This document shows, one piece after another, positions 20,254 to 34,907 of a stretch of 64,000 nt of DNA (positions are counted from its first letter, which is position 1; each line of letters begins with the position of its first letter). The stretch lies in the NCBI GenBank assembly GCA_963808235.1, contig CAWEEQ010000004.1, positions 2,592,001-2,656,000 on the forward strand. Reading direction: 5' to 3'. The notes under the pieces were generated by a model. The model saw nothing but the letters and a program-made list of their open reading frames with translations. It had not been told where the DNA came from and made no database searches. Origin of the DNA: an uncultured delta proteobacterium. GTDB taxonomy: Bacteria > Desulfobacterota > Binatia > Binatales > Binataceae. Position numbers and translations under genes: made by a program.

Positions 20254-22617
20254 CTAGATCTTGTCGCTCGGACCTTCGTCAGCCTCGTACGATTCCGCGG
20301 CGTCCGGAGCGTAAGGACCGTAGGTGTCGTATCCACCGTAGTAGCGGCGATAGTACTGATAGTGCTGGCTGTTGACGTCGACCTGGTTGAGCAGGACGCC
20401 GAAGACTTTGGCCCGCGCGAACTCGAGCCGCGCATAGGCCGCCTTAACGTGCTGCTTGGAGGTTTTCGAGGAGTTCACCACCAGCACCACGCCGTCGACC
20501 ATCGTCGATAGCAGCATCGCGTCGGTCACCGGCAAAATAGGCGGCGAATCGATCACCACAACGTCGAACTCGCTGGTGAGCTGCGCCAGCGTGTCGCGCA
20601 TCTTGTCCGAGCCCACCAGTTCCGACGGATTCGGAGGTATCGAGCCCGCGCTGAGGAACGACAGACTGTCGATATCGGTGCTGCGGATCAGGTCGCTCAC
20701 GTTGCACGCGCCCGCCAGCACCTCGGTCAAGCCGGCCTGATTCTCGAGCGCGAGAACCTTGTGGCATCGCGGCCGTCTCAGATCAACGTCGATCAGCAAG
20801 ACCCGCACGCCCGTATGCGCGAACACCACGGCCGTGTTCAGCGCGCTGACGGTCTTCCCTTCGGAGTTCGACGCGCTGGTAAAGAGTATCGTCTTGGGCG
20901 GAGCGCCGGCCCGCGACAGCATCAATGCGGTGCGCAGCGATCGATACGCTTCGCCAACGACCGAGTACTGGTTCATCGAGCCCGCAAGCTCGCGACTACT
21001 CGCGAGCGTCGGCACGCGGTCGTTTCCGTTGCGCTTGGCCAGCGCCCGCGTTTCCTGCCGCGTGAATGCCGGCACTGCGGCCAGGTTGGGCAGCCTCAGG
21101 TATTGCTCGACTTGTTCAGGTGTCTTGAGCGTCTTGTCCTGGTATTCAATCAGGAAGGCAAGACCAATTCCGAGCGCCAGTCCGAACGCGATCGCTTGTA
21201 GGAGCGACATCGTGCGATGCGGTCCCGAGGGCCCACCCGGCACAGACGCATCGTCGACGACCACGGTATTCGACGATTGGCTCTCGGCCGCCAGGCCGAG
21301 ATCCTTTATTCGCTGCAGGACGGCGTTGTAAAGCTCGCGGTTGGTATCCACCTCGCGCTGAAGGATCGCGTATCCGACGGAAGCATCGTTAACGCTGAGC
21401 GCTTGCGACCGCTGGCGGCCCATCTCCTCCTGGAGGTCCGCTTCCTTGGTTTTGGCGGCATTGAAGGAGGCGATGACGCTCGCGGAGTAAGCCTTAAGCT
21501 CCTGGTTGTAGGTCTCCTGGAGCTGATCGATGCGCGCCTTGGCACGGACCATCGGCGGATAGTCGGGCTTGAATTGCTTCGCCATCGCGACGTAATCGCT
21601 CATCGCGGTATCGAGTTGCGTTTTGACCGACGGCGTCGAGGAACCGGAGTTGGAATTGCCGCTGGAGGGAAGCTCCGGTACCTGATTCTTGCGAATCTGA
21701 TCGACCTCCGCTTCGAGCCCGATCCGCGCGACCTGCGCGTTGGTGAGTTCCCTGCTCAAATCCGAGAGGCGCGCGATGACCACCGTTTCCTTGCCGTCAA
21801 CCGACATAAGGCCCGGCACGATTCCCTTGTCGCGGCGATAATTGTTCAGCGCCAGTTCCGATTTCTCGAGCTTCTCTTTCAGCTCCACCAGCTTGTCGCG
21901 CAGAAACCGCTCGGCTTCCGCGTTGGCCTGCGTGCGCAGCTCGATCCCTTCGCGGATGTACGCATGCGCGTGCGCGTTGGCGAGCCGTGCCGACAGGAGC
22001 GCATTCGGAGTCGTGAAAACTATCTTCACCAGGTTGGTATCGGGGATCGGCCTGATCTCCAGAGAACCCAGGTAGCTGCCGACCGCGTTGTCGACCGAAG
22101 TCGCACTCGCCGGCGCCGGTTTCGCCACCGCCGCCTTTGACCCGAACCAGCTCGCGAAAAATCCTCTGCTCGGCTTTCTACTCTTGCCGAGAAATAACGG
22201 GTCGGTTGCGAGGCCCTCCGCCGTGACCACGTTGGTGGCCAGCGTGCGGCTCTTCAGGATTTCGCATTGCGTCTTGAGAAAGTCTTCGACCGAATCCCAA
22301 TCGTTGCCCCCGGTCGAAGCGTCACCCTGCGCTCCCTGGTGACCTTCGAGGAGCTGCGGGTTACCCGGCTTCAGTAGAATCGTCGAATCCGCAGTGTAGA
22401 GCGGCGTCATCATCGACACCCGGATCGCAACGATTACCAGCGCCGCGAGCGTGATCGACACGATCATCCAGCGATGCTTCTTTACGGTGATCCAGTAGCT
22501 CAGCAGGTCGAGCGATCGCTCGTCTTCTTCGTGCAGTTTCCCGCCGAACGAGCCGTCCATGACTTCAGTGTCGATCGGTTGCGCGCGCCGGATGAAATAT
22601 GGCGATGGTTGGGTCAT
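20254..22617 (-). CDS. wzc: Polysaccharide co-polymerase / tyrosine autokinase Wzc
   Basis: Two TM segments, coiled coil, EAYRSLRT, Walker A SNSEGKT, LLIDVDLRRP, IDSPP, Tyr-rich tail YQYYRRYYGGYDTY. Confidence 0.93.
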   Translation of the reverse strand: MTQPSPYFIRRAQPIDTEVMDGSFGGKLHEEDERSLDLLSYWITVKKHRWMIVSITLAALVIVAIRVSMMTPLYTADSTILLKPGNPQLLEGHQGAQGDASTGGNDWDSVEDFLKTQCEILKSRTLATNVVTAEGLATDPLFLGKSRKPSRGFFASWFGSKAAVAKPAPASATSVDNAVGSYLGSLEIRPIPDTNLVKIVFTTPNALLSARLANAHAHAYIREGIELRTQANAEAERFLRDKLVELKEKLEKSELALNNYRRDKGIVPGLMSVDGKETVVIARLSDLSRELTNAQVARIGLEAEVDQIRKNQVPELPSSGNSNSGSSTPSVKTQLDTAMSDYVAMAKQFKPDYPPMVRAKARIDQLQETYNQELKAYSASVIASFNAAKTKEADLQEEMGRQRSQALSVNDASVGYAILQREVDTNRELYNAVLQRIKDLGLAAESQSSNTVVVDDASVPGGPSGPHRTMSLLQAIAFGLALGIGLAFLIEYQDKTLKTPEQVEQYLRLPNLAAVPAFTRQETRALAKRNGNDRVPTLASSRELAGSMNQYSVVGEAYRSLRTALMLSRAGAPPKTILFTSASNSEGKTVSALNTAVVFAHTGVRVLLIDVDLRRPRCHKVLALENQAGLTEVLAGACNVSDLIRSTDIDSLSFLSAGSIPPNPSELVGSDKMRDTLAQLTSEFDVVVIDSPPILPVTDAMLLSTMVDGVVLVVNSSKTSKQHVKAAYARLEFARAKVFGVLLNQVDVNSQHYQYYRRYYGGYDTYGPYAPDAAESYEADEGPSDKI

Positions 22618-22632
22618 TTTACTCTTTTCGTC

Positions 22633-23931
22633 TCAGAAGGTCGGCAGCGGTACCGCCATGCGTGTCAGGATGTTATAAACCACGTACGGACCTATCCTGA
22701 GGTCCGAATACGGTACATCGATTACATCGTTGGCGCGAACCGGGATGTCCGGGTCGGCGCCGGTCGCAATCTTGTCCAGGTTCACCGGGATCGACACCTT
22801 GTTGCCGGCCGCGTCGCTGCGAATCAGCGTCGCCGCAGAAGGCGCAGCCGCATACATCGCTCCTCCCGCCGACCCCACCGCGCCCAATACCGTCAGACCC
22901 GAACCAACCTGGAAGAATCCGGGCTTGTATACCCATCCCGTCACCATCACGTTGCCGCCGCCGGGAACGATCAGCACGTCGCCCGGCCGTACCGGCATGT
23001 TGATGTAGCGAGCGCTGCCGTTGAGCGCGCTGCTCTTGAGCGGGATCACGATCGCCGGCCCGTTGCTGATATTCGTCTGCAGGGAGGCCATCGTCAGTTC
23101 CGTTTTATCTGGACCCGAATGGTCGGGCTGCGCATTCTGCGGGATGTCGGCCTCGGCCACCTTGTGCTGCGGTTCGTTTTCTTCGCTTAGCGAGGCGGCC
23201 AAACGCGCGAGCTGCTTTTGCCCGCCCTTCACCTCGGGAAGAATCACAATCTCGTCGGCCGCTTCCGCGGTCATTCCGCCCGCCTGTGTGATCGCATCGA
23301 GAATCGATACGTCAGAGCTCGTCAACGTGATCAGACCCGGCGTGCGCACCGCGCCCACCACCGCGACCTGCCGGCTGCGATATTCCCGGATAAAAACGTC
23401 GACCTGCGGACTATACATGTACTTGGTGAGCGCCGTTTTCAGCTCGTCGGAAAGTTGCGGCTCGGTCAGGCCGCCGGCCTGTATGTTCCCGATAAGCGGC
23501 AGCTCGATCTTTCCGTCGCCGCCCACTCGAACCGTGCGCTCTTTCAAATCTTCCACGCCCGGAACCGTGATTTCGATCACGTCTCCAGGGCCGATTGGAT
23601 AGTCCAGACTTTCACGCGCCTGCGATCTCTTTTCGAAGAGCGCCTTTAGCCGGTCCTGATTCGCCTGGGAGTTTGCGGCGCTCGGCACCCGCGGATCGGC
23701 AGCCAAACCAGGCGACGGCGGCGATTCCGATCCGAGTGCAGGTTGCGCTGCTGGTGCAGCCGCGGGCGCAGCGTCGGGTGCGGGCGCGGCAGTTTCCGCC
23801 GTTGGCGCGGAATCCGGCGCAGGCTCGGGTTGCGATGACGAGCACGCGACCAGCGATGTAGCTACGATCGCCGCGATGCCCACCGTTCTAAAACGAAATC
23901 CTGTTGTCGTCCGTCTCATACGCAAATTCAA
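22633..23931 (-). CDS. wza: Polysaccharide export lipoprotein (Wza/OPX, SLBB domains)
   Basis: Lipobox LVAC, YPIGPGDVIEI, DGKIELPLIG, VVGAVRTPG, two SLBB repeats; start may be ATG 23919. Confidence 0.9.
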   Translation of the reverse strand: MNLRMRRTTTGFRFRTVGIAAIVATSLVACSSSQPEPAPDSAPTAETAAPAPDAAPAAAPAAQPALGSESPPSPGLAADPRVPSAANSQANQDRLKALFEKRSQARESLDYPIGPGDVIEITVPGVEDLKERTVRVGGDGKIELPLIGNIQAGGLTEPQLSDELKTALTKYMYSPQVDVFIREYRSRQVAVVGAVRTPGLITLTSSDVSILDAITQAGGMTAEAADEIVILPEVKGGQKQLARLAASLSEENEPQHKVAEADIPQNAQPDHSGPDKTELTMASLQTNISNGPAIVIPLKSSALNGSARYINMPVRPGDVLIVPGGGNVMVTGWVYKPGFFQVGSGLTVLGAVGSAGGAMYAAAPSAATLIRSDAAGNKVSIPVNLDKIATGADPDIPVRANDVIDVPYSDLRIGPYVVYNILTRMAVPLPTF

Positions 23932-23961
23932 AGGAAAAAATCCATCGGAGTTTGTTTCTGC

Positions 23962-24393
23962 CTAATTCTTGTTGGCTCCCGATCCATTGCCGGAGCTGCC
24001 CGTATTTGTCCGCACCGGCGAGATTTTGGCCGCTGACGCACTCGTCGCCGAGTTATCAACAGCCGTACCCAGCGTCGCGACTGCGACCGGCGGTGCATGC
24101 TGCGTAAACCCCCAATTCACCGTCAGCCCCTGGTCTCCGATGTACGACATCACCCACTGACCCATCGCGCCGAGCTTGTATATCCCCGGTTTCAGATTCG
24201 AAATCGCATACGCGCCGTTGGCGTCGGAGACCGCTTTTCCCGCCTCGAGGTTCGCCGAGTTCTCGACAAAAACGGTGACGCCGGATACCGGCTGGCCGCG
24301 ATTATTTAACATCCTGCCCACCAGCTCGGCGCACGATGCCGGCGTATTGCCGATCAGTACGAGCAACGTCAGCACGACAATCCACGACGCCAT
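23962..24393 (-). CDS. Small secreted carboxypeptidase-regulatory-like (beta-sandwich) domain protein
   Basis: GGGAG RBS before ATG 24393, signal peptide, GQPVSGVTV..SDANGAYAISNLKPGIYKL pattern; first gene of the wza operon. Confidence 0.65.
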   Translation of the reverse strand: MASWIVVLTLLVLIGNTPASCAELVGRMLNNRGQPVSGVTVFVENSANLEAGKAVSDANGAYAISNLKPGIYKLGAMGQWVMSYIGDQGLTVNWGFTQHAPPVAVATLGTAVDNSATSASAAKISPVRTNTGSSGNGSGANKN

Positions 24394-24642
24394 CGATACT
24401 CCCGCGATGTTTTCCGTTCTCGTCGTATGTTTCCCCAGGTAGCTGATATCGGCGGGCATGCGTCCGCCATCCCTTAGGACCCTTTTGTTGGCATCTCTAA
24501 GCTTTAACGGGCGCGCTTTGCGCACTTCCCCCGTGATCACTGCCGTCGTCCTTTCGCTTGCCCGATTGGACGATAAACTACGGCCAGGCCGAATCACGAA
24601 TCCTCGACCACACGCCGAACAATCCGATACAAATCACGGCCT

Positions 24643-24659
24643 TGCGTCGATCGTGCCGA
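24643..24659 (-). promoter_or_regulatory. Candidate sigma-54 (-24/-12) promoter for the wza-wzc operon
   Basis: Minus strand reads TCGGCACGATCGACGCA: GG-N10-GC spacing with a perfect GGCACG; lacks the TT before GC. Confidence 0.35.
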
Positions 24660-24784
24660 TACAACGCCGATGATGTCCATGAGCCCGAGAGCTTGCGATC
24701 TTCTTCTCAACGAAATTCGTCCAGCCCGTGAATTGTTACATCGGATTCGGAGTTCGAGGATCCGCGCCGCTGCCGTTTGACACC

Positions 24785-24813
24785 GTGAAAAGTGAACAGT
24801 GAAAAAGTAAAAA
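24785..24813 (+). repeat. Degenerate heptamer tandem repeat (GTGAAAA)
   Basis: GTGAAAA GTGAACA GTGAAAA A GTAAAAA. Confidence 0.6.
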
Positions 24814-25101
24814 AAGCGCGCGATTATTTCTAGAGCCCTCCACCCGGCGACGCTAATGGGAGTCTAGTCATCGGCAGCCGCAAACACAAGCTAGCGTAAA
24901 CATCAACAAACTACATTGGCCTTATTGAAACGGCTGTTACCTTGCGTTTCCGCAGGCTATTTCTGCCATGGATTGTCTTGCTCCCGCAGCCGAAATATTT
25001 TCTGATGCGGATTGAATCGCAAACATCTCGATCTCGGCTCGCGGTGCATCTGGTTCGCGCCGCACCCGATCATCGCCCCCTTCAAACCGGATCCATTTGA
25101 T

Positions 25102-25135
25102 GTGTACAGTGAACGTGAAACGTGACGAGTGAAAA
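25102..25135 (+). repeat. Degenerate heptamer tandem repeat (GTGAAAA-like)
   Basis: GTGTACA GTGAAC GTGAAAC GTGACGA GTGAAAA. Confidence 0.55.
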
Positions 25136-25201
25136 AGCGGGGATCGGCGCAAAGTCTGATACTTGTTGACTCGTCGTTAGCGAATTCGAGAGAGCATTGC
25201 C

Positions 25202-25447
25202 TTGACTCCAGATATTGAGCATCGCGTCCGCAAGACAATCATCCGCACCTTCAACCTGTCGGCCGAAGATGGAACCGGAGAGCTCCGCATGGGCAGTTTG
25301 CCCGGATGGGACTCGCTCGGACACATGCGCCTGGTCGTGGAACTGGAAGAGGAGTTCGGAGTAAGTTTCCCCACCTACCTCCTGCCCGAAATTCTCGACG
25401 TCGATTCGATCGTTCGCGAAACTCTGAAGCTTCAAGCGGAGCAATAG
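25202..25447 (+). CDS. Stand-alone acyl/aminoacyl carrier protein
   Basis: 81 aa, GWDSLGHM phosphopantetheine site (Ser38), LEEEFGV; TTG start. Confidence 0.9.
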   Translation: MTPDIEHRVRKTIIRTFNLSAEDGTGELRMGSLPGWDSLGHMRLVVELEEEFGVSFPTYLLPEILDVDSIVRETLKLQAEQ

Positions 25448-25461
25448 GGCGTCCCGGTTCA

Positions 25462-26646
25462 ATGACTCATTCGGTGCGGCTCGAACGAGACATTCCGGCT
25501 GACCTGGTCGAGGAGTTTCTCAAGAAACTGTCCTACATATCCGAGTCGCTATCCACCTATGATCTCGATCCGGCAGCGCGCGACAACGTCAGCTTCGAGC
25601 TTCGCCCTGGACATGACGCGCAATCGGAGTTGGTATCCAGTCGAATCCGCGAAGTCGCTGACAAGCTATGCAAGGGCCGCCGCCAGCCGAAGATTAAACT
25701 GCTAGTCAGTCGCAAGGATCGAGATATCTCGTTCAGCGCGGATCCTCATCCTCTGCTCGAGTCGATGGATGAGATTCGCAAGTACGGCGAAGGCCGCTTC
25801 GGCTTCGGTCCGCGGCTGGTCGAACTGATGAATCTGTTCGACCGCGACGTGTGCGCGATCGCCGATCGGATGCGCGCGGTTCCGCATCAGTTTCCGACTC
25901 TGATTGGCGCCGACGTTATGGACCGATGCCGCTATCTGCGCTCATTTCCCTCAGCGCTGACAATGGTTTCGCATCTGCGCGAGGACTTGGGCGCCATCCA
26001 GGACTTCGCAAACATCGCGGCGTGGGATGGCGAGAAGTTGGTCTGCGATCCGGCCACCTTGAGCACTATCCAATGCCTGCTCGCACCTTCGATATGCTTC
26101 CACTACTACGCGTGGCTGCAAAACCGCACCATCGATACGACAGTCGTCACCGCGATCGGAAAATGCTTCCGCTTCGAATCGAAGAGCATGGCCGGCCTGG
26201 AACGATTGTGGGACTTCACGATGCGTGAAGTGATATTCGCGGGGCCCGGCAAGTACGTACTCGACCAGAGACAAAGAGTAGTCGACGAAAGCGTCGCACT
26301 ACTCGACAAGTGGGAATTGGCCTACGAAATCAAAAGCGCGACCGACCCGTTTTTTATCGAAGACTACGCCGCGATGACCGCGTTTCAGTTGGCGTTCGAG
26401 TTGAAGTTCGAAATCCTCGCGCCGCTCCCCTACAAGCATAAGGACCTCGCGATCGGCTCCTTCAACTATCACCAGGATTTCTTCGGCCGCTCGTTCGCCA
26501 TCTCGGGGCAAAACAAAGAGCCCGTCCACACCAGTTGCGTCGGCTTCGGCCTCGAACGCGTCGCGCTGGCATTCCTTGCGCAACATGGCCTCAATCCGAA
26601 GCTATGGCCCGCCGCAATCGCAAATCAGATCCATAGCGCGTGGTAG
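25462..26646 (+). CDS. Class II aminoacyl-tRNA-synthetase paralog: atypical SerRS-like amino acid:[carrier protein] ligase
   Basis: YLRSFP, LAPSICFHYY, motif 2 CFRFE..RLWDFTMRE, ATDPFF, LKFEIL, SFNYHQDFFG, motif 3 HTSCVGFGLER; adjacent to a carrier protein. Confidence 0.85.
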   Translation: MTHSVRLERDIPADLVEEFLKKLSYISESLSTYDLDPAARDNVSFELRPGHDAQSELVSSRIREVADKLCKGRRQPKIKLLVSRKDRDISFSADPHPLLESMDEIRKYGEGRFGFGPRLVELMNLFDRDVCAIADRMRAVPHQFPTLIGADVMDRCRYLRSFPSALTMVSHLREDLGAIQDFANIAAWDGEKLVCDPATLSTIQCLLAPSICFHYYAWLQNRTIDTTVVTAIGKCFRFESKSMAGLERLWDFTMREVIFAGPGKYVLDQRQRVVDESVALLDKWELAYEIKSATDPFFIEDYAAMTAFQLAFELKFEILAPLPYKHKDLAIGSFNYHQDFFGRSFAISGQNKEPVHTSCVGFGLERVALAFLAQHGLNPKLWPAAIANQIHSAW

Positions 26647-26647
26647 C

Positions 26648-27148
26648 ATGATGGCAGATGATTCGACCGATACCAGCGTAGTCATTCGCGCCGCAAAGCC
26701 GGCCGACATCTATACAGTGGAGCCGCTTTGGATCGCCCTCTACAAGCACCAGAAGGACCACGGGATGCTGCTGGACTTGTCCGCATCGTCGTTCACTCAA
26801 TGGGCCGAAGCGATGAAGCCGGCGCTCGGACGTTTCACTTGTCTGTTCATTGCCGAGCACAGCGGAGGACCGATTGGATTTCTGGCCGGCAACCTTAAGA
26901 CCCTTCCTCCGTATTTCGGAGGCCACTTGATCGGTTTCGTAAGTGAAGTGTTCGTTGCCGATGCGCACCGCGGTAAGCAGGTCGGCCGCGATCTGGTCGA
27001 TACCGCGCTCCGATGGTTCAAGGCTCAGCGCGCGCATCGCGTCGAGCTGCAGGTGGTGATGAATAACTCGGGCGCTCGAAAGCTCTACAACAAGCTCGGC
27101 TGGAGCGAGGAGCTAGTTCAGATGGTCTGGAATTGGCCCGCGAAGTAG
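26648..27148 (+). CDS. GNAT-family N-acetyltransferase
   Basis: IRAAKPAD, EVFVADAHRGKQVG (motif A), NSGARKLYNKLGW (motif B); starts 1 nt after the ligase stop. Confidence 0.9.
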   Translation: MMADDSTDTSVVIRAAKPADIYTVEPLWIALYKHQKDHGMLLDLSASSFTQWAEAMKPALGRFTCLFIAEHSGGPIGFLAGNLKTLPPYFGGHLIGFVSEVFVADAHRGKQVGRDLVDTALRWFKAQRAHRVELQVVMNNSGARKLYNKLGWSEELVQMVWNWPAK

Positions 27149-28291
27149 CACATCCGTAATCTTGTTAGCCACGTACCAGCATAGGCATACGAAGACGTAG
27201 GTCCCCGCCGCACCCGCAATCTCCCGCATTCGATGTGAACCGATCGAATCCGCAAACGCGAAGCGCTCCTTGTGCGATCGATACCACACATAAACACAGA
27301 ACCCGATCCCATGCAGGATTCCCCACGTCGCCCAGTACAGGTTCATCCCGTGCCACAAGCCTACCGCGATAAATACCATCACCAGGTTGAAGTACGCATT
27401 TGCTTTCTTGAGTCCCCATCGATTGTAAAACAGGTAGTCGGTGCATATCCGGGTGACGGTCATGTTCCACCGCGCCCAGAAATCTCTTAGGTTCACTTGC
27501 CCGAATGGATAGTTGAAACTCGGCAATAATTTGATTCCCCAGAACAACGCCAGGCATTCCATAAGATGAAAGCCGCCGCTGGTGCTCAAGTAGAAACCCC
27601 ACGGACCGGTAACAAAAATTATGAACAGCTTCGGCCAGCGCGGCCCCGGATGATCTAACCCGACGGTTACTCGATTCAGGCCGGCGCCAATGATCATTTG
27701 TACGATCGCCAACGAAAGCTTTAGCCACCACTCTCGATTCACAACTTCAGTAGCCGTTCGCTTCGACTCGGCATTGCCGTATTGCGGAAAAAACTCGCTC
27801 GGGCGAATAAGCGGTCCAAGCAGCGTGAATGGAAACGTGATCCAGATCACGTAGTCGATAAAATCGAGCTTCTTCAAACGCCCCGATCCGAATTCCCACA
27901 AGAACGATATAGTTCGCAGCAGCAGCCACATGTCGTGGTCGGGCAGCGTCCATAAAACTCCAAATGCATGCACACTGAAGCGGTCCAGTAGATGCACGCT
28001 GCCGGCAAAGAAAATTGCGATCACCGCAATCATCGTGGCGCATGCGTACGTCCACCGCCGCTTCCCGAGTTTCGCCTCGAGAGGCGTGATCCTTTCGAGG
28101 AACCGCGCAAAACCGAACAGCAACAGTATCCAGAGCAGGTAGCCGAAGAACTGATTCCGATAAACGACAGTAGCGACTATCAAGCTGAGCGCTAGATAGC
28201 CATATCGGCGGCGAAGCAATGGCAGGCATATGACAGCCACTGCGCTTGCAATGACGGCGACTAGCGAGTACTCGGCTGCGATGAGCATCAT
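27113..28291 (-). CDS. MBOAT-family membrane-bound O-acyltransferase (DltB/AlgI-like)
   Basis: FPFTLLGPLIR, SFNYPF..NLRDFWARWN, VGLWHG (catalytic His), WGILHGIG. Confidence 0.9.
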   Translation of the reverse strand: MMLIAAEYSLVAVIASAVAVICLPLLRRRYGYLALSLIVATVVYRNQFFGYLLWILLLFGFARFLERITPLEAKLGKRRWTYACATMIAVIAIFFAGSVHLLDRFSVHAFGVLWTLPDHDMWLLLRTISFLWEFGSGRLKKLDFIDYVIWITFPFTLLGPLIRPSEFFPQYGNAESKRTATEVVNREWWLKLSLAIVQMIIGAGLNRVTVGLDHPGPRWPKLFIIFVTGPWGFYLSTSGGFHLMECLALFWGIKLLPSFNYPFGQVNLRDFWARWNMTVTRICTDYLFYNRWGLKKANAYFNLVMVFIAVGLWHGMNLYWATWGILHGIGFCVYVWYRSHKERFAFADSIGSHRMREIAGAAGTYVFVCLCWYVANKITDVLLRGPIPDHLN

Positions 28292-28360
28292 CTGAGGTGG
28301 AAACTGTGGCTATATGGAGCCGAATCGCAAATCAAGATCTCCTCTAGACTCAAACCCTCG

Positions 28361-29542
28361 GTGAAGCGAGTAGCCCTAGTCTACGGGGCGCCTGCGGGAG
28401 TCGGTGGCCTTGGCGGTCAAGCTGCGAGCGCAATCCAGGCTTTGGCGATCGATGGCGTGGAACTCCATGCATTCGGCCCCGGCCACGCCGAGCGTTGGCC
28501 TCTCACCTGCGCTACACCTGGTATTTTCTGGCACGAAGCCCCCCGCCCGATTTCGCGCTGGAGAACGCAGTACACCCTGCTGCGATGGCGCCAGGGGCGG
28601 TTGGTATTCGAAAATAGTCGCGCGCTCGGACGCTGGGCGGCCGAGCAAATCGCGCGCCTCAAGCCGGATTGCTGCTACGTTTTCACACAAGTCGGCCTCG
28701 AGTCACTGAAGTGGGCCGCGCGCGCCTCGATTCCGACCGTGCTCGACAATCCGAATGGACATATCCGGAACTTCCGCCGGGTCTATGACCAGGAGTCCGC
28801 GCGATGGTGCGGCGCGTCATTTCATGGACACCCGACTGCGGCGATGGTCGAGCGGGTCGAGAATGAATACCTACTCGCCGGACGGATCCGCGTTTCCTCG
28901 CAATGGGCGAAGCGTTCGATGCTGTCTCATGGTGTGGCCGGCAAGGAGATCGGCGTGTTCGGCCAGCCAGTCGATCTGACCCGATACGCGCCGAACGCAA
29001 CCCCGGCGCAAGCCGAAGGCAGGCTCCGGGTCTGTTATGTGGGCGCTCTGGATCTCCGCAAAGGCTTCGTCTACCTCCTGCGCGCCGCAAAGATGCTCGG
29101 GGCGGATGCTATCGACCTGGAGATCGTCGGAGCAACCGGGGACCGCGCGAGCCGCATACTATTCGAGCACGAATCCGCCGGCGTTAACTTGCGGTGTGCT
29201 CCGGGCGATCCGATCCCGGCGTATCAGCGCGCCGAGCTGTTTGTATTGCCAACCCTCGAGGACGGTTTCGGCTTCGTCGTCGCGGAAGCAATGGCAAGCG
29301 GCCTGCCCGTCGTCGTGACCGACTGTTGCGGCGCGGCGGAGTGGGTGCGGCCGGGCGAGACCGGCTGGGTGGTGCCCGGCGGAGACGCCGAAGCATTGGC
29401 GGGGGCCTTCCGGGACGCGATACGTCGGCGCAAAGATCTTCGTGCGATGGGTCGGCGCGCTCGCTACGACGCGGAGAATCGCGGCGGCCTTCATTGTTCC
29501 GTTGCGCTGCGCCAATGGGTCTTCGGGGAAGCCCGGCACTGA
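28361..29542 (+). CDS. GT4 glycosyltransferase
   Basis: YVGALDLRKG, EDGFGFVVAEAMASGLPVV. Confidence 0.9.
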   Translation: MKRVALVYGAPAGVGGLGGQAASAIQALAIDGVELHAFGPGHAERWPLTCATPGIFWHEAPRPISRWRTQYTLLRWRQGRLVFENSRALGRWAAEQIARLKPDCCYVFTQVGLESLKWAARASIPTVLDNPNGHIRNFRRVYDQESARWCGASFHGHPTAAMVERVENEYLLAGRIRVSSQWAKRSMLSHGVAGKEIGVFGQPVDLTRYAPNATPAQAEGRLRVCYVGALDLRKGFVYLLRAAKMLGADAIDLEIVGATGDRASRILFEHESAGVNLRCAPGDPIPAYQRAELFVLPTLEDGFGFVVAEAMASGLPVVVTDCCGAAEWVRPGETGWVVPGGDAEALAGAFRDAIRRRKDLRAMGRRARYDAENRGGLHCSVALRQWVFGEARH

Positions 29543-29557
29543 GCCGGCGATTTCGCG

Positions 29558-30289
29558 ATGCCAACGCCAGCGTGGAAAAAGCTCGCGCGCATCGTCGCGT
29601 GGCCGCTGAGGTCGGGATGGCCCGACGAAGCGCGATGGGTAGTTCAGGGTCCGATATTCGGTCGCCTGATCAATAGCGCAACCCTCGGCGCGCCGCGCGG
29701 TTTGACGATTCTCAATGCAGGCGCCGGCGAAGGATCGTTTTCCCCGTTGCTGCTTGCGATCCCGGGCGCGGCGCATGTGGTCGAGATGGACTATTCATAC
29801 CGAACCGGTCCGCGCAGTGTCTCTGATACCCGCCAGCACGTGGTGGCCGCGTCGCTGACCAACATTCCGATCAAGTCCGCGTCTTTCGACTTCGTCTTGT
29901 GCAGCGAAGTCCTGGAGCACATCGACGACGACGCCTCGGCTCTCGATGAACTTTGCCGCGTGGTGGCTCCGGGCGGATGGCTGCTGATTTCTGTGCCTAC
30001 GCCGCCGGCGGTTTACGATCCCGACCATGCGCGCGAGGGTTACGCTGCGGCCGATCTGACCCGGATGCTGCGCGACCGCGGACTCGGCGTGGTCGAGGTC
30101 GCCTATTGCATGCACGGCGCTTTCAAACTGGTACTTCGCGGATGGCGCCGGTTCGGCCGTCTGCCGCGAGCTCTCTTGCTTGGCCTCGCGACCTTCGACC
30201 GGTTCTGCCGCATCGGCGCCCCCATGGACCTAATCGTGCTCTCGCGGCTTCCCAGCGGCGATGATCCACGACCCCTCACGAGTCAATAG
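29558..30289 (+). CDS. Class I SAM-dependent methyltransferase
   Basis: LNAGAGEG, FDFVLCSEVLEH, PGGWLLISVP. Confidence 0.88.
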   Translation: MPTPAWKKLARIVAWPLRSGWPDEARWVVQGPIFGRLINSATLGAPRGLTILNAGAGEGSFSPLLLAIPGAAHVVEMDYSYRTGPRSVSDTRQHVVAASLTNIPIKSASFDFVLCSEVLEHIDDDASALDELCRVVAPGGWLLISVPTPPAVYDPDHAREGYAAADLTRMLRDRGLGVVEVAYCMHGAFKLVLRGWRRFGRLPRALLLGLATFDRFCRIGAPMDLIVLSRLPSGDDPRPLTSQ

Positions 30290-33200
30290 CCTTCCACGAT
30301 TACCCAGCCCGTTTTCGTCGCGCTCATCGAGGCCGGTAGGGTCAGCGCCGTTGTCGAGGCGGTCGAGCCACCCGAGTCGTCGGCGGTGATCTTCGGCACG
30401 TTCGCGAATGCGATGGGATAGGTGATCGTCTGTGCTGTCGCGGTCGTGTTCTCATACCCGTTAAGAAAGACCACGACCTTCTTCACACTCGAGTCCATCG
30501 CCGGCTGGGACCATACCGCTGTCCCCGCCGTCGTTCCGTTGAGCGTCGTCTGGGTGCGGGTGCTGCCGCCAATCACCTGATATGGAACTCCCGCGCTGGT
30601 AAAGCTATTGCCGGATGGCGGCGTGGTAAGGTGAGCCTCGAAGGTCACGTTATCGAAAACCACCGCGCCGAAGATCGGCGGCGTACCGGTCAGGTTCGTG
30701 CCGTCAACGTAAGGGCCGGTGCCCGATACGTGCGTCATCTCGCCGTTGTGAATGCCAATTCCGCCAAGGATCTGACCGTCAAGCGTGATCACCGGGGCGT
30801 TGAAAGAGGCAAGCGAGCTATTCGACACTGACAGCCACGGCCCGGTAGGTTGGAGCATGTTCGGCACTTCGACAACTGTGAAGGTGCCGCCATTCTCGGA
30901 ATCGATCGAAGTCGAATCGACGTGCAGCCAACCAGGATCGATAATCGCCCACTTGGTGCTCGACGGGGTCAGAAAATATGAACCGCTGACGAGCGGGCCG
31001 TTGGTCTCGATACACGCACTGCCACAGGTGAAATTCAGATTGTAGAGCGGAGTCAGGCCGCCGTTTACCGACATGGCAATGGCAGCTCCGGGAGCTCCCG
31101 GGCCGCCGAACAGATTTCGCCCCGAGCCGCCGTAGTCGTTGATCTGATCGAGCATCAGACCGTATTGCGCGCCGTTAAAGCCGATGTTCTCCAGTTGCGG
31201 CGCGGTTACGTTGGCAATCAGGTTGAAGCTGCCGCCCGAGATCGTCAGGTCCTTGATATGCGGCTGATTGCCGCCCGCGTTACCCAGCCCGAAATTTCGC
31301 ATCATCATCCACGGCTGATCTTGCGCCGTCGACGCGAGGTTGCCACCGGCCAGGAAATATCCTTCCGGACTTACCAACGGCAGGCTGGTGTTACTCCAGT
31401 TTTCAAGCAGGACCGTGTTTGCATCGTTTGCCAGCTTCGAATTTGGCGCCGTGCAGCCACCAGAGTCGTTGGTGCATCGAGCGGAGTTGCTGAGTCGGAC
31501 CGAGTCCATCTTGCCCTGAAAATTCTCCTGCGGAACCAGCAGATGCCAATATTCCACGTCAGAGCCAAGCACCAGGTCCTCATCGACGCGCTGTGACACC
31601 GTGCCAGTCATCGCAATCTTGCCGTCTGAAGTGAGTGCCGCTCCGGGGATGGCGTGGTAGAACCGGGCATTGGAGCCGTCGTAGGAGAGTTGATAGTAGT
31701 AAGTCGTGTTCGCTGATAGTGCGGCGGCAGTCTTGAACGTGCTCGCGCCGACCCATCCCGTAGTGCTGGTATGAAAACGCGCTTTCAGCTTGCTGTCAGC
31801 GCCATCCCAGAACACTTCAAACGCACCCTTGCAACTTGGTGGACTTGCGCCGTCGCTCGGAAACTGACTGCATCCCGTCGCGACCGGCGCCACCGCTCCC
31901 AGGCTGCCGATCAGCATCTGCGTCGCACCAGCGTTCGTCGTCGTGAAGAAGCCCTCCGCCGTGAACGCTGCAAGACCGTTCAACGCGCGATTACCCAGCG
32001 CCTCGTCAGCGTCAAACAACACGGAGCCGGTGCCGAAGTTGAACGAATTGCCGCTGCCAACGAGTGCCGGGGCAAGACCCGCTCCACCGGCGTTACTCAT
32101 AACAGCCGGTGGCGCGAGGACCATCGTCGGCATCACGGAACGCCTTCGGCACGGCAGAATCGTCGTCTCCAGCCGCCCCGCGCCTAGCACGTCGGGAAGA
32201 TTCGGGTTGCTCGCGCAAGTGTGAAACCACGGCTGCGCGCACACCTGGTAAGACCCGGCAGGGAGACAAACCGGCACTCCCTTCGCGCAAGCGTCGAGGC
32301 TCGCCGCGTCGAGAGCCGCATAGGAATCATTGGCGCCGGTAGGATCGGCGCCGTACTTTGGATCGACCGGGTTAACACAATTATTTACATCGAAGCCGGT
32401 TAGCGGACTGGAGAGCTGCGAATAGTTAGCTGAGTTGGTAGAGCGCAGAGAAGTTAAGGTCATCGGCTGATCTTGTACCGCGACATTCTCCGGCGCCGAC
32501 GCGACCGGCAGAATTGCGATCTGCGCGACTCCCCATGCGCCGCTGCCGATTGCCCTGCCCGTCGCGGTCGCGGGAGCGGTGTTGTACGACCAGCAAAACT
32601 CATTGCCCATGTTGGCAATTCCGGTGTTCGAGGCCGGAGCAGTAAGGGCTAGCGGCGGATTTTGCTGGGAGGCACATACGATCATGAGATCTTTGGAGTT
32701 CGTCGTGACCGGTGCTGCCTGACTGAAGGTTGTCGATGACGCTATCGTGCTGCCGGAACTTACATCAGGCAGCCCTGCCTGGCCCAAGTCCATCAGAACT
32801 CCAAAGCCGAAGGTCGCGACAGAGTAGCCGACCGTGTAAGTCGATGGTTCGCTGGCGGTTGCTACTTTGTAAAAGCAGTTGTGAGTCTGGCCGTTGCCCT
32901 GGTCCTGCCGGATTTGCGTGAACGATGCCGGCGGAGTCACCGTCTCCGTCCCGGTTGGCATCCCGGAGCAGAACAGAAGCAAGTCTCCCTGGACTGTGTT
33001 GCTCGGCTTGTTAGCCGTACAACTTGTCGTATTGCCAGTTTGACAAGTAGTCGCGCCGGGCCTGATGAAAGGCTGCAGCCAGGTACCGAGCTGAGCACCA
33101 ACCTGGCCGAACGCTAGCGCATCTCCAAACGAAGTTGCGCTGGCCAGGTTGGTGACTTTGTGCGCGTTGAAGTTCACGTCGGCAATCGGACTCAGGCTGC

Positions 33201-33561
33201 CTACTCCGCACGTCCACTGCCCGTTTTGTCCCATCGCCCAGGCGCCGTTTCCGCCAGCCGCGCAGGGAATGGTCTTCGTGCAGTTGTTGCAGTAGATAAG
33301 CGTGCCATCTTGTTCGGCCGGAAAACTCGCAAATGCCACGTTGACGATTGTCGGCGCGATCGGCTGGATGCCGGAGAGGCGGTCGTTGATTGCCTGGCGG
33401 AATTGCAAGCCCGCGCCGACTCCGGTGAAGTTTGGGATCGGCTGGTATGCTCCGGGTGGCGGCAGGTTCTGCGCCTTGACGAGGCTTGCCAGGAGAATCC
33501 AGATTGCGAGCGCCAGAATTGGAGCACCGAACGCGCGCCCGAAGAACCTTCTGAAATCCAT
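30283..33561 (-). CDS. Large secreted mosaic protein: pectate-lyase-like beta-helix + LamG-like + tail-fibre-like motifs (tailspike-like)
   Basis: Signal peptide ending VKA-Q; YGADPTGANDSYAAL..LPAGSY beta-helix cap; FQGKMDSVRLSN..DANTVLL LamG-like; TITYPIAFANVP C-terminus; start ATG 33561. Confidence 0.65.
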   Translation of the reverse strand: MDFRRFFGRAFGAPILALAIWILLASLVKAQNLPPPGAYQPIPNFTGVGAGLQFRQAINDRLSGIQPIAPTIVNVAFASFPAEQDGTLIYCNNCTKTIPCAAGGNGAWAMGQNGQWTCGVGSLSPIADVNFNAHKVTNLASATSFGDALAFGQVGAQLGTWLQPFIRPGATTCQTGNTTSCTANKPSNTVQGDLLLFCSGMPTGTETVTPPASFTQIRQDQGNGQTHNCFYKVATASEPSTYTVGYSVATFGFGVLMDLGQAGLPDVSSGSTIASSTTFSQAAPVTTNSKDLMIVCASQQNPPLALTAPASNTGIANMGNEFCWSYNTAPATATGRAIGSGAWGVAQIAILPVASAPENVAVQDQPMTLTSLRSTNSANYSQLSSPLTGFDVNNCVNPVDPKYGADPTGANDSYAALDAASLDACAKGVPVCLPAGSYQVCAQPWFHTCASNPNLPDVLGAGRLETTILPCRRRSVMPTMVLAPPAVMSNAGGAGLAPALVGSGNSFNFGTGSVLFDADEALGNRALNGLAAFTAEGFFTTTNAGATQMLIGSLGAVAPVATGCSQFPSDGASPPSCKGAFEVFWDGADSKLKARFHTSTTGWVGASTFKTAAALSANTTYYYQLSYDGSNARFYHAIPGAALTSDGKIAMTGTVSQRVDEDLVLGSDVEYWHLLVPQENFQGKMDSVRLSNSARCTNDSGGCTAPNSKLANDANTVLLENWSNTSLPLVSPEGYFLAGGNLASTAQDQPWMMMRNFGLGNAGGNQPHIKDLTISGGSFNLIANVTAPQLENIGFNGAQYGLMLDQINDYGGSGRNLFGGPGAPGAAIAMSVNGGLTPLYNLNFTCGSACIETNGPLVSGSYFLTPSSTKWAIIDPGWLHVDSTSIDSENGGTFTVVEVPNMLQPTGPWLSVSNSSLASFNAPVITLDGQILGGIGIHNGEMTHVSGTGPYVDGTNLTGTPPIFGAVVFDNVTFEAHLTTPPSGNSFTSAGVPYQVIGGSTRTQTTLNGTTAGTAVWSQPAMDSSVKKVVVFLNGYENTTATAQTITYPIAFANVPKITADDSGGSTASTTALTLPASMSATKTGWVIVEGY

Positions 33562-33686
33562 CCAATCTCTCCCGCGCACGGACGCGCGTTGATATTCGAG
33601 GCACCGCCGGCCCGACCTGGCGGAGATGCTTCTGCCGGTCATTGTGGCTCGGAAAACCGGGGAGCGTAAGGCTGAACAGTTCATCC

Positions 33687-34907
33687 CTAAGGAATTTTGG
33701 CGGAGGCCGACAAAATGTCGAGGAGGCGGGCTAAATGGGAGCTCAATTCGAATTGTGACGCCAATCGGAATGCGCCTTCGCGCAGTTGGCTGAAATGCGG
33801 TTCGTCGCGCACGCATTGGGCTATTGCGCCGGCCAATTTGTCGGGGCGGGCGGGATGCGCGTCGGCAAGATGGCCGTTGACTCCGTCATGAAGCCACTCG
33901 GGGATGCCGCCGACGGCAAATGCCGCGGCCGGAACGCGGTGCAGCCCTGCTTCCGGACCGGTCAGTCCAAACGGTTCCGGCCAGACACTCGGGACGACCA
34001 GCAGATCGGAGTTGTCGAAGGCAGCGGCCAGGTCCGCCGACTCGAGGATGGGGTGAAAAACAATTTTCAGGCTGGAATTCTGCCGCATGATCTCGGTCGC
34101 CAAGATTTGCGACGCCACTTTCGCTTGTCCTTCGCCAACAAGATCCAGTTGGATTGAGCGGCCGCCGACCTGTGACGCTATGATCGGCAATGCACGGAGC
34201 AAGACCTCTGCGCCTTTTTCGAACACCATTCGGCCGGCGAAGAGCAATTTGAGTTGGACGCTGCGATCGGCGGCCGTTCTCGAGGATGGCACGCTCGATT
34301 TGTGCTCGGTAATTGGCAGACGCACGAGATGGACCGAGCCGGCGGAGAGTCCGTGCTTCAGGTACTCGCGACGCATGTGCTCGCTGCCCACAATGATCGC
34401 GCGATAGCGGCCAAGGTTGCGAAGCCTGGTTTCCTGTTGGCGATAATCATTCCACATCGTCACGGGATTCAAGCCGCCGCATCGGCGCGGGTAGTAGTAG
34501 GCCAGGCAAGCCGCGCCGAAGCGCCGGTCGCATGGTTCGAAAGCGGGAATCCGGAAACTCTTACGCCCGCTGATGCAGGTTCCCGAGTAAACGTGTGCGT
34601 AGAAGACCGCGGGAGCAATCGCCAGCAACTGAGTTTCGATAGCAGGATCCTGGATGCCATTGACGTAGATCACATCCGGACGCCAGTCGCGAAGCGCGGC
34701 GAGTGCGGCGGGCGCACCCAGCTCAACAATGCACCAGATGGGCACGTCGTTTGAGGCGATTATCGGCGGGCGCGTGTCGACGCCGCCATTCTCGGAGAAT
34801 AGTGCGACTTCGCAACCGTGCTGGCGCATCTCTGGCGCCAATCGTTGAAGGTAGGTCTCGACGCCGCCGGCCATGCGATAGGAGCAGTTGACAATAGCTA
34901 CTCGCAA
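33687..34907 (-). CDS. GT4 glycosyltransferase
   Basis: AGGVETY, FAGRMVFEKG, WPEPFGLTGPEA. Confidence 0.88.
   Translation of the reverse strand: MRVAIVNCSYRMAGGVETYLQRLAPEMRQHGCEVALFSENGGVDTRPPIIASNDVPIWCIVELGAPAALAALRDWRPDVIYVNGIQDPAIETQLLAIAPAVFYAHVYSGTCISGRKSFRIPAFEPCDRRFGAACLAYYYPRRCGGLNPVTMWNDYRQQETRLRNLGRYRAIIVGSEHMRREYLKHGLSAGSVHLVRLPITEHKSSVPSSRTAADRSVQLKLLFAGRMVFEKGAEVLLRALPIIASQVGGRSIQLDLVGEGQAKVASQILATEIMRQNSSLKIVFHPILESADLAAAFDNSDLLVVPSVWPEPFGLTGPEAGLHRVPAAAFAVGGIPEWLHDGVNGHLADAHPARPDKLAGAIAQCVRDEPHFSQLREGAFRLASQFELSSHLARLLDILSASAKIP

Follow-up and report, generated by a model that had tools for sequence, protein, structure and literature searches.

A conserved cassette joining a SerRS-like ligase and its carrier protein to a GNAT and a short MBOAT in a Binataceae polysaccharide locus is probably an undescribed variant of carrier-protein-dependent envelope acylation

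What do four adjoining genes for a carrier protein, a paralog of seryl-tRNA synthetase (SerRS), a GNAT acyltransferase and an MBOAT acyltransferase do in the middle of a bacterial polysaccharide locus? The genes lie at positions 25202 to 28291 of a 64,000-nucleotide stretch of contig CAWEEQ010000004.1 (assembly GCA_963808235.1, an uncultured member of the Binataceae), henceforth referred to as the window. They form a conserved cassette with strict linkage in both directions, and the cassette is probably an undescribed variant of carrier-protein-dependent envelope acylation. Its most likely function is the attachment of a capped amino acid to a secreted sugar polymer. The four genes and their key residues are as follows.

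25202..25447, plus strand: carrier protein, resembling an acyl carrier protein (ACP), 81 amino acids, TTG start; Ser38 is the phosphopantetheine site, in an invariant W36-D37-S38...H41 motif
25462..26646, plus strand: class II aminoacyl-tRNA synthetase (aaRS)-like ligase, 394 amino acids, paralogous both to methanogen-type SerRS and to amino acid:[carrier protein] ligases
26095..26097, plus strand: codon of ligase Cys212, putative zinc ligand 1 by alignment, invariant in 20/20 relatives
26170..26178, plus strand: ligase motif 2, Arg237-Phe-Glu239 (CFRFES), with R237 and E239 invariant; coordinates counted from 25462, where the ligase starts
26227..26229, plus strand: codon of ligase Glu256 (FTMRE), putative zinc ligand 2 by alignment, invariant in 20/20
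26536..26538, plus strand: codon of ligase Cys359 (HTSCVGFG), putative zinc ligand 3 by alignment, invariant in 20/20
26557..26559, plus strand: ligase motif 3, Arg366 (GLER), invariant; coordinate computed from the start at 25462
26648..27148, plus strand: GNAT acyl-CoA N-acyltransferase, 166 amino acids, the proposed N-capping enzyme
27113..28291, minus strand: short MBOAT (Pfam MBOAT), 392 amino acids, without the C-terminal FxYxxF extension
27350..27352, minus strand: MBOAT His314 (GLWHG), catalytic-type, invariant
27464..27466, minus strand: MBOAT Asn276 (FWARWN), the second MBOAT signature position, invariant in 49/49, occupied by His in DltB; coordinate computed

The genes are tightly packed. 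The gap between carrier and ligase is 14 nt, the GNAT ATG at 26648 lies 1 nt past the ligase stop, and the convergent MBOAT and GNAT genes overlap by 36 bp at their 3' ends.

The ligase was identified by comparison with curated models and solved structures. Its best curated match is the NCBIfam amino acid--[ACP] ligase model NF005479 (E 1.7e-47, 161.9 bits); two type-2 SerRS models also match (PRK00960, E 1.7e-41, and a second at 3.2e-30), and the Pfam tRNA-synt_2b match is below its cut-off (E 1.9e-5). The nearest solved relatives are the ligase Bll0957 (3mey, 7.1e-30) and type-2 SerRS (3w3s, 3.1e-21, and another at 7.5e-12). Cys212, Glu256 and Cys359 align with the Cys/Glu/Cys triad of Bll0957, whose residues we take to be zinc ligands, and all three are invariant in 20 relatives, as are motif 2 Arg237/Glu239 and motif 3 Arg366. 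Homologs are numerous (1375 clusters at E <= 1e-5). Six long-form relatives scored 142-167 bits on NF005479, below its equivalog cut-off of 357, and on sequence comparison the window ligase and its long-form relatives form a family that is sister to the amino acid:[carrier protein] ligases and are not equivalogs. The long form is due to an extra N-terminal domain of ~95 amino acids (window 25462-25750, ligase residues 1-95), which is family-specific and kept across clades; in it Pro12 and Leu15 never vary and Tyr25 hardly does. The alignment to plasmid genes that carry the annotation amino acid--[ACP] ligase starts only at query residue ~98.

It is hardly credible that the protein instead functions as a seryl-tRNA synthetase, whether as an additional SerRS or as a drug-resistant copy. 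The type-2 SerRS catalytic core is intact, with motifs 2 and 3 and the zinc triad, and the bacterial-type serS found elsewhere in the same genome reads in three frames in the assembly; both facts favor a second synthetase. However, the SerRS models are far under cut-off (142 of 611 bits and 105 of 490 bits), and the type-2 model aligns only from its position 159, so that the tRNA-binding domain is missing in the ligase. A profile of the N-terminal 113 residues matched no solved chain (PDB) below E 0.35, a tRNA gene search of the window found none, and the carrier gene is linked in 77/80 loci. The presence of a bacterial-type serS elsewhere in the genome likewise fits the ligase reading. The distribution is also patchy, the cassette MBOAT being present in 0/300 other sampled genomes of the window's phylum and 0/400 others in the phylum of genome G301.

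Two other genes of this genome touch on the ligase. The serS gene (C4:773511-774820) matches TIGR00414 as three consecutive pieces in three frames, and the two frameshifts may be assembly indels in this 4-contig genome or mark a real pseudogene. A second long-form ligase paralog (C1:139002-146631; 399 amino acids, 31% identical to the window ligase) follows genes named, from sequence reading, as an NRPS (nonribosomal peptide synthetase)-like adenylation protein, a hydroxyacyl-CoA dehydrogenase-like gene, a 93-amino-acid carrier-like gene, and thioesterase-like and acyl-CoA dehydrogenase-like genes.

The carrier protein has the motif GWDSLGH around Ser38. Its Pfam PP-binding match is exactly on the cut-off (E 4.7e-4), and a profile built from 31 orthologs matches solved ACPs, the best being 2lml (E 3.5e-16), which also has a WDSLxH motif. 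By sequence, the carrier resembles generic ACPs.

Linkage was examined from the ligase side in a set of loci collected by pattern scan with one genome per species, which yielded 80 loci (32-89% identity, at least ten phyla, designated by L numbers). Genes were called as stop-to-stop open reading frames (ORFs) with a third-position GC (GC3) heuristic, the profiles were iterated on the ORFs of the same loci that they score, and related loci are not independent samples. Counted in this way, a carrier gene is present in 77/80 loci, nearly always directly upstream of the ligase, and an MBOAT in 26/80, of which 25 are of the short type and one (L017) is a long AlgI-type MBOAT ending FIYFQY. On a quick maximum-likelihood ligase tree of 80 rows (SH-like approximate likelihood ratio, SH-aLRT, support; L038 and L078 left out as ORFs <300 amino acids), the loci with a short MBOAT group into two clades. 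In clade A (support 99), 20 of the 23 rows have the short MBOAT, the window among them, and clade B (6 rows, support 100) holds L028, L029, L032, L033 and L034. The MBOAT label requires 5 changes on the tree vs 21.6 in shuffles.

Linkage was also examined from the MBOAT side. The window MBOAT belongs to a discrete subfamily of ~70 clusters of 220-430 amino acids at E <= 3e-39, the next matches being proteins of 450-660 amino acids at 2e-25. A metagenome scan with the subfamily alignment gave 68 loci, and two ordinary MBOATs (28-29% identical) were set aside, leaving 66. Carrier, ligase or cassette GNAT is adjacent to the MBOAT in 59/66; the remaining 7 stop 0-92 nt past the MBOAT 3' end and are therefore no counter-example. 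The short MBOAT is thus found only beside cassette genes (59/59 informative loci). Among 50 loci with a ligase match, the MBOAT is co-directional and upstream in 42 (MBOAT-ACP-ligase-GNAT), while 8 have it on the opposite strand like the window. Clustering of the ORFs of 47 clade-A loci gave MBOAT in 45, ligase in 45 and GNAT in 38, the next real family being a GT4-like glycosyltransferase in 12; no fifth conserved gene family was found by this clustering, and the commonest extra neighbors were glycosyltransferase and sugar-nucleotide genes. The four-gene arrangement is not a product of chance, since it recurs across phyla.

These results bear out the observations of the first-pass annotation of this DNA. 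It had placed the carrier with Ser38, the ligase, the GNAT and a convergent MBOAT with its histidine near 27350 inside a polysaccharide locus, and all were found there. Its Cys/Glu/Cys triad at codons 26095, 26227 and 26536, along with motifs 2 and 3, corresponds to the invariant Cys212/Glu256/Cys359. Its assignment of the ligase to the amino acid:[carrier protein] ligases and type-2 SerRS agrees with the matches to NF005479, Bll0957 and type-2 SerRS given above, and the co-occurrence of ACP, GNAT and MBOAT that it anticipated was recovered in the neighborhood survey (carrier 77/80, GNAT 48/80, MBOAT subfamily 59/59 informative loci).

A small NRPS-like natural-product pathway unrelated to the envelope, in which a secreted metabolite would be built from the carrier-bound amino acid, is very improbable. 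The NRPS, carrier-like, thioesterase and acyl-CoA dehydrogenase genes beside the second ligase paralog (31%) speak for such a pathway, as do the B12-radical SAM, KAS III-like and carbamoyltransferase genes carried by L028/L029/L032. Condensation, thioesterase and ketosynthase genes, however, are not among the conserved neighbors of window-type loci, the partner is a membrane MBOAT, and the window flanks are glycan genes.

The MBOAT itself is of the short type. It matches Pfam PF03062 (E 6.1e-7, 29.5 bits vs a gathering threshold of 27), its His314 aligns with the WHG histidine of DltB, and H314 and N276 are invariant in 49/49 sequences. According to the accessible text of PMC12148441, DltB takes D-Ala from the carrier DltC and transfers it to the FxYxxF tyrosine of a microprotein, DltX, which in turn delivers it to the SGNH protein DltD; other bacterial MBOATs bear FxYxxF on two extra C-terminal helices and use an acyl-CoA donor, and DltB is without this C-terminal tail. 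A motif check found FxYxxF absent from the window MBOAT and 23 orthologs. The window MBOAT aligns with residues 58-379 of the genome's other MBOAT and ends ~95 amino acids before the FIYFQF tail of that protein. Thr364-Tyr365 (window 27197-27202) is invariant in 49/49, lies in a hydrophobic stretch <30 residues from the C-terminus and contains the sole conserved tyrosine near the C-terminus. Tyr365 (TYxF) was considered as a fused shuttle and provisionally set aside, given its misfit to FxYxxF and its position in this stretch near the C-terminus.

The genome's other MBOAT (C4:2197567-2198994, 475 amino acids, within C4:2190049-2200139) ends FIYFQF and is followed by a membrane protein of 377 amino acids that has a hydrophobic segment at its N-terminus. 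A WDSL-type carrier gene (2191627-2191866), beside genes for proteins of 478 and 628 amino acids, lies about 6 kb upstream of this MBOAT.

Relatives differ in the partner of the MBOAT. Three clade-A rows lack a short MBOAT: L050, on a 1.5-kb contig, L004 and L017. In L004 and L017 an AlgX-type SGNH gene (E 6.7e-26 and 5.9e-20) converges on the GNAT at the position of the window MBOAT; the L017 SGNH gene comes after the long FIYFQY MBOAT, and the L004 contig ends inside the SGNH gene. In clade B a membrane-anchored SGNH-like gene adjoins the MBOAT. That of L028, L029 and L032 matches Lipase_GDSL (1.7e-6) and ALGX (1.2e-4), and that of Sphingopyxis (L034) encodes 361 amino acids and has GNS and DEGH motifs. 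Taken together, the MBOAT exits of the family come both with a visible partner and without one. As to the makeup of the clade-B loci, L028, L029 and L032 have the order ACP, SGNH, MBOAT, ligase without GNAT, L032 having a formyltransferase as well, and their neighbors include B12-binding radical SAM, KAS III-like and carbamoyltransferase genes. A five-gene version is carried by a cultured organism, Sphingopyxis bauzanensis DSM 22271 (L034).

The role of the GNAT was approached through its sequence and its replacements. It matches Acetyltransf_1 (PF00583; E 1.5e-15, 57.9 bits vs a cut-off of 20.7), and a signal peptide or transmembrane segment is not evident in its sequence. Its best curated matches include alpha-amine acetylases, namely N-acetylglutamate synthase, RimI, HaaN and MshD (1.4e-5), and no curated subfamily model reached its cut-off, all scores being far below. 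A search for longer, fused forms of it found none at E <= 1e-8, which is weak evidence. A GNAT gene lies <=500 nt from the ligase in 48/80 ligase-centered loci, and a Formyl_trans_N protein (E <= 1e-20) occurs in 8/80, <50 nt from the ligase in 6 of these 8; no locus has both (0/80). The best model for the formyltransferases is NF005414, then the ArnA N-domain, then Fmt. Three cases look like direct replacement of one enzyme by the other: L011 and L013 share 91% identity to either side of a stretch where one locus has a cassette-type GNAT and the other a formyltransferase, in L121 a formyltransferase lies directly 3' of the ligase beside a frame-broken GNAT remnant, and L063 (formyltransferase) is sister to L055 (a long GNAT-like gene) with branch lengths of 0.04 and 0.02. 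The formyltransferase label changes 7 times on the ligase tree. In 6 independent pairs, formyltransferase gain against GNAT loss went in the expected direction in ~4.4, in the opposite direction in 0 and without difference in 1.6.

The mutual replacement supports an N-capping role, in which GNAT and formyltransferase would be alternative enzymes capping the alpha-amine. Since acetyl-CoA and formyl-folate are cytoplasmic and an MBOAT delivers outside, capping would occur on the carrier before export. The ACP-ligase-GNAT trio also exists without an MBOAT, which fits the capping reading: in L022, L023, L025, L027 and L030 (Anaerolineales, Chloroflexota, Phycisphaerae) the trio precedes an AAC(3)-type N-acyltransferase (Antibiotic_NAT, 2.1e-33), and Capsule_synth, methyltransferase and CMP-sugar-synthetase-like genes surround this variant (~7.6-8.6 kb in each locus). 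A search of the L025 genome with an MBOAT query gave no match. The capping reading also fits the documented occurrence of N-acetyl- and N-formyl-aminoacyl groups on bacterial glycans. In the largest ligase clade (30 rows, L041-L079), which has no MBOAT, the ligase is followed by a protein of 320-340 amino acids (e.g. L053:7140-8126) with an N-terminal GNAT domain and a C-terminal half without assignment.

An arrangement closer to Dlt, in which the aminoacyl group would be exported uncapped, with its amine free, and contribute positive charge while the GNAT acetylates an amino sugar, proofreads or detoxifies misactivated products, or regulates, is judged rather unlikely. The Dlt precedent, which exports free D-Ala (accessible text of PMC12148441), speaks for it. 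So do L007, L028 and L029, which have ligase, carrier and MBOAT with neither GNAT nor formyltransferase in the locus, and the resemblance of the formyltransferases to sugar-amine formyltransferases. Set against this, a GNAT match was present in 19/19 metagenome cassette loci where the ligase is complete and the sequence runs on for at least 600 nt (in L121 as the remnant only), the window GNAT starts 1 nt past the ligase stop, GNAT and formyltransferase swap at the same site, and the trio persists without an MBOAT beside the AAC(3)-like acyltransferase of Anaerolineales and Phycisphaerae.

A cytoplasmic route, in which the carrier's aminoacyl group is transferred by the GNAT, or by a different transferase, to the amine of a nucleoside-diphosphate (NDP)-amino sugar and the MBOAT performs a separate O-acylation, is improbable. 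Amino sugars with amide-linked N-acetyl-alanyl, -glycyl, -seryl and N-formyl-alanyl groups are described in the accessible literature, DegT aminotransferases adjoin the cassette in L034 and L017, and the AAC(3)-type enzyme of the Anaerolineales variant is an amine acyltransferase. The occurrence of the short MBOAT only beside carrier and ligase genes (59/59) is nevertheless hard to square with an unrelated donor. The window cassette has no adjoining sugar aminotransferase, and its 166-amino-acid GNAT matches acetyl-CoA-type acetyltransferases.

Around the cassette (3.9-40 kb) the window is a polysaccharide locus, of which the following features are relevant.

13464-14810 and 17317-20166: Wzy_C-type proteins
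20254-22617, minus strand: Wzc-type co-polymerase/tyrosine kinase
22633-23931, minus strand: Wza-type outer-membrane export protein
24598..25201, strand not assigned: presumed promoter region of the ACP-ligase-GNAT operon, 604 nt without a chosen ORF, GC 0.517; promoter function inferred
28361-29542, plus strand: GT4 glycosyltransferase, divergent from the MBOAT with a 69-nt spacer
29558-30289, plus strand: methyltransferase, 3' of the GT4 gene

The glycan genes of the window also include seven GT4, one GT2 and one GT9 glycosyltransferase genes, methyltransferases and dTDP-sugar genes. A flippase match is weak (Polysacc_synt, E 5e-4, under cut-off). A sigma-70 consensus scan of 24400-28500 gave 0 promoter sites, terminator-like sites in the same interval were not above shuffled sequence, and an Rfam search of 23500-29000 gave no match. 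Within the locus, at 30283-33816 on the minus strand, a gene encodes a 1177-amino-acid protein rich in Thr, Ser, Gly and Ala, with a hydrophobic stretch near its N-terminus and no Pfam match at E <= 0.001.

The gene identities, the conserved catalytic residues and the two-way linkage are direct observations. From them we infer the pathway that follows, in each chemical step, in the identity of its amino acid and acyl group, in its acceptor and in the placing of capping before transfer. The ligase would activate a small alpha-amino acid (Gly, Ala or Ser by analogy), with the amine held on the active-site zinc, and attach it as a thioester to the phosphopantetheine arm borne by Ser38 of the neighboring carrier. 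The cytoplasmic GNAT would then cap the alpha-amine of the carrier-bound amino acid from an acyl-CoA, most likely acetyl-CoA; in some relatives a formyltransferase would do the capping. The short MBOAT would take the N-capped aminoacyl group from the carrier at the inner membrane face and pass it via the His314/Asn276 site to an acceptor at the outer face. In the window, the acceptor would most likely be the polysaccharide built by the Wzx/Wzy/Wza/Wzc system, giving O-linked N-acetyl-aminoacyl esters. Taken as a whole, the four-step pathway of loading, capping, MBOAT export and polysaccharide esterification is considered to have a slightly better than even chance of being right.

Several results count against this proposal or against a close likeness to known ligases and to Dlt. 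The ligase is under the equivalog cut-off of NF005479 (161.9 vs 357 bits). DltC is absent among the 60 best solved matches to the carrier profile. On the DltB model TIGR04091 the window MBOAT scores 69.4 bits vs a cut-off of 375, and other MBOATs score higher (155 and 141 bits for two AlgI-type proteins with FIYFQF, 142-182 bits for clade-B MBOATs). The TIGR04091 match was accordingly rejected as proof of DltB affinity; judged by these scores, the window MBOAT is not specially close to DltB, and no closer than AlgI-type MBOATs. A heuristic search of small ORFs for a transmembrane segment plus motif, which a divergent shuttle could escape, found a DltX-like microprotein in 0/26 loci. No SGNH/DltD-like gene is present in the window and none is conserved in 47 window-type loci; an SGNH profile from L028/L029/L032 had no match in the whole genome of the window.

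Further contrary points concern capping and linkage chemistry. The acyl-CoA loop of GNAT enzymes usually takes the form R-x-x-G-x-G/A, and that of the window GNAT is R-G-K-Q-V-G. The formyltransferases score best on an ArnA-N-like sugar-amine model, and GNAT and formyltransferase could both target an amino sugar. The sign test on the 6 pairs gave a median p of 0.125, consistent in direction and underpowered. N-acetyl-alanyl, N-acetyl-glycyl, N-acetyl-seryl and N-formyl-alanyl groups are documented on bacterial glycans (PMC3210612, PMC10059132, PMC2905691); in the accessible parts of these papers they are amide-linked to amino sugars, not esters.

The acceptor was assessed with a panel of the window's own glycan proteins, applied within 6 kb of the cassette in genome loci and to metagenome loci of at least 7 kb (n=18). 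Glycosyltransferase, export or polymerase genes were near the cassette in 10/25 genome loci and 12/18 long metagenome loci, and counting sugar-nucleotide genes raised the genome figure to 16/25. To be set with the contrary results are the 9/25 genome loci and 6/18 long metagenome loci with no gene of any of these kinds nearby by the panel. Pfam searches of five panel-negative loci found FkbM methyltransferases (L018, L020), sugar genes (L034) and a formyltransferase (L019), but none at L011, where the neighbors, rsmD-like and dehydratase genes, look housekeeping-type.

The same loading and export module might serve another acceptor, such as a membrane lipid, lipopolysaccharide core or lipid A, peptidoglycan or a secreted protein; this is held to be unlikely. 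Besides the panel-negative loci and L011, it is favored by the behavior of the cassette as a mobile four-gene unit with variable flanks and by the lack of a linked polymer-specific SGNH transferase. Eukaryotic MBOATs acylate lipids and proteins directly. A glycan acceptor is favored instead by the window and its 89% relative L001, in both of which the cassette is flanked by Wza/Wzc and glycosyltransferase genes, by glycosyltransferase and sugar-nucleotide genes being the commonest extra neighbors, and by L034, where DegT and a UDP-sugar dehydrogenase are in the same gene string.

The secreted polysaccharide is kept as the most likely acceptor in the window, and the first-pass annotation, confirmed in its observations, is partly supported in its interpretation. 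The Wzx/Wzy locus that it described contains Wza, Wzc, two Wzy_C-type and glycosyltransferase genes, but the flippase match falls below cut-off. Capsule or extracellular polysaccharide as the acceptor suits the window locus, although glycan genes flank only 10/25 genome and 12/18 long metagenome loci. Its description of the module as Dlt-analogous goes too far: it holds for the tail-less MBOAT and the linked carrier and does not extend to a DltX/DltD-like gene or to the MBOAT score (69 vs 141-155 bits for AlgI-type proteins). N-acetylation of the tethered amino acid by the GNAT gained indirect support from the recurrent replacement by formyltransferase.

The cassette is rare and patchy. In the ligase tree the window ligase and that of Candidatus Binatus, its 89% relative, are nested within a clade of Acidobacteriota, and the GC content of the cassette is 0.56 (MBOAT 0.533) vs 0.60-0.61 in the flanks; the nesting and the low GC together suggest horizontal acquisition of the cassette.

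The cassette was also compared with known systems. Like Dlt, it would have an amino acid adenylated and thioesterified to a small phosphopantetheinyl carrier, and the linkage and architecture suggest a tail-less MBOAT with the loaded carrier as donor, as for Dlt in the accessible text of PMC12148441. It differs in that the activating enzyme is a class II aaRS paralog and not the ANL-family DltA (no other conserved candidate in 47 loci), in including a GNAT or formyltransferase, in having no DltX-like microprotein found (26 loci) and no DltD/SGNH in window-type loci, and in an MBOAT far under the DltB model cut-off, lower than AlgI-type MBOATs. The window host is moreover a diderm with a Wza/Wzc locus, so teichoic acid cannot be the target. 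With the amino acid:[carrier protein] ligases (Bll0957, Bll6282, Atu2573; NF005479) the window ligase shares a homologous core, the aligned Cys/Glu/Cys, the lack of the SerRS tRNA-binding domain and a dedicated adjacent carrier gene; it differs in its sub-cut-off score, the extra ~95-amino-acid N-terminal domain and the MBOAT and GNAT context. The MBOAT-SGNH O-acetylation pairs (PatA/PatB, AlgI/AlgJ/AlgX, WssH/WssI) likewise have an MBOAT with an invariant His and an envelope polymer as target, and in the relatives L004 and L017 the trio goes with an SGNH protein of AlgX type. In the accessible accounts, however, those pairs use an acetyl-CoA donor, have FxYxxF on the MBOAT and need the SGNH partner, whereas the window MBOAT lacks all three features and is linked to a carrier protein.

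Three further systems offer partial parallels. In mycothiol synthesis, MshC is a CysRS paralog that ligates an amino acid and MshD is a GNAT that acetylates its alpha-amine; by analogy only, an aaRS paralog thus serves a non-tRNA acceptor before a GNAT acetylates the alpha-amine. Here the enzyme is class I, there is no carrier and no membrane step, ligation is directly to an amino sugar and the product is a soluble thiol. In LgrA the F domain N-formylates carrier-tethered valine, and macrolactam pathways protect the amine of an aminoacyl-ACP, so that there is precedent for modifying the amine while the aminoacyl thioester is still on its carrier, ahead of transfer; these are, however, NRPS and polyketide synthase (PKS) lines making soluble antibiotics, not envelope decorations. 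AlmEFG carries out glycine modification of Vibrio cholerae lipid A through a carrier protein loaded by an adenylating enzyme, and is likewise a Gram-negative envelope aminoacylation via a carrier, but with a DltA-like ANL enzyme, an LpxL-type transferase on the cytoplasmic face, no MBOAT and no N-capping. MshC is listed in the table of a 2022 review whose accessible text states that the biological function served by amino acid:[carrier protein] ligases is unknown (PMC9437257). A full-text literature search, with most subscription journals and supplements outside its coverage, found no paper joining an enzyme of this ligase type with an MBOAT, in line with the first-pass annotation, which knew of no characterized system with this combination. 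What is new in the cassette is the different class of activating enzyme, the added capping step and the lack of a visible shuttle or SGNH partner.

The cassette ties a large ligase sister family to a concrete downstream enzyme and a testable product, and it places carrier-protein-fed MBOAT acylation, known from the Gram-positive Dlt system, in diderm soil bacteria as well. A short MBOAT with neither shuttle motif nor SGNH partner also tests the universality of the acyl-tyrosine shuttle among bacterial MBOATs. The genes are candidates for the synthesis of capped aminoacyl glycan substituents, for which no biosynthetic enzyme is named in the accessible parts of PMC3210612, PMC10059132 and PMC2905691. 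A broader proposal is offered tentatively, with its chances put below even: that the trio of ACP, SerRS-like ligase and N-capping enzyme is a general, unrecognized route to N-acetyl- and N-formyl-aminoacyl-carrier donors for bacterial glycans. If it is true, the trio would be the missing route to the N-acetyl-alanyl, -glycyl, -seryl and N-formyl-alanyl substituents of O-antigen and capsule and would give the long-form ligase family its physiological role, with differing exit enzymes: a self-sufficient short MBOAT without need of an SGNH or DltX partner, as in the window, an MBOAT and SGNH pair, or a cytoplasmic AAC(3)-like amine acyltransferase.

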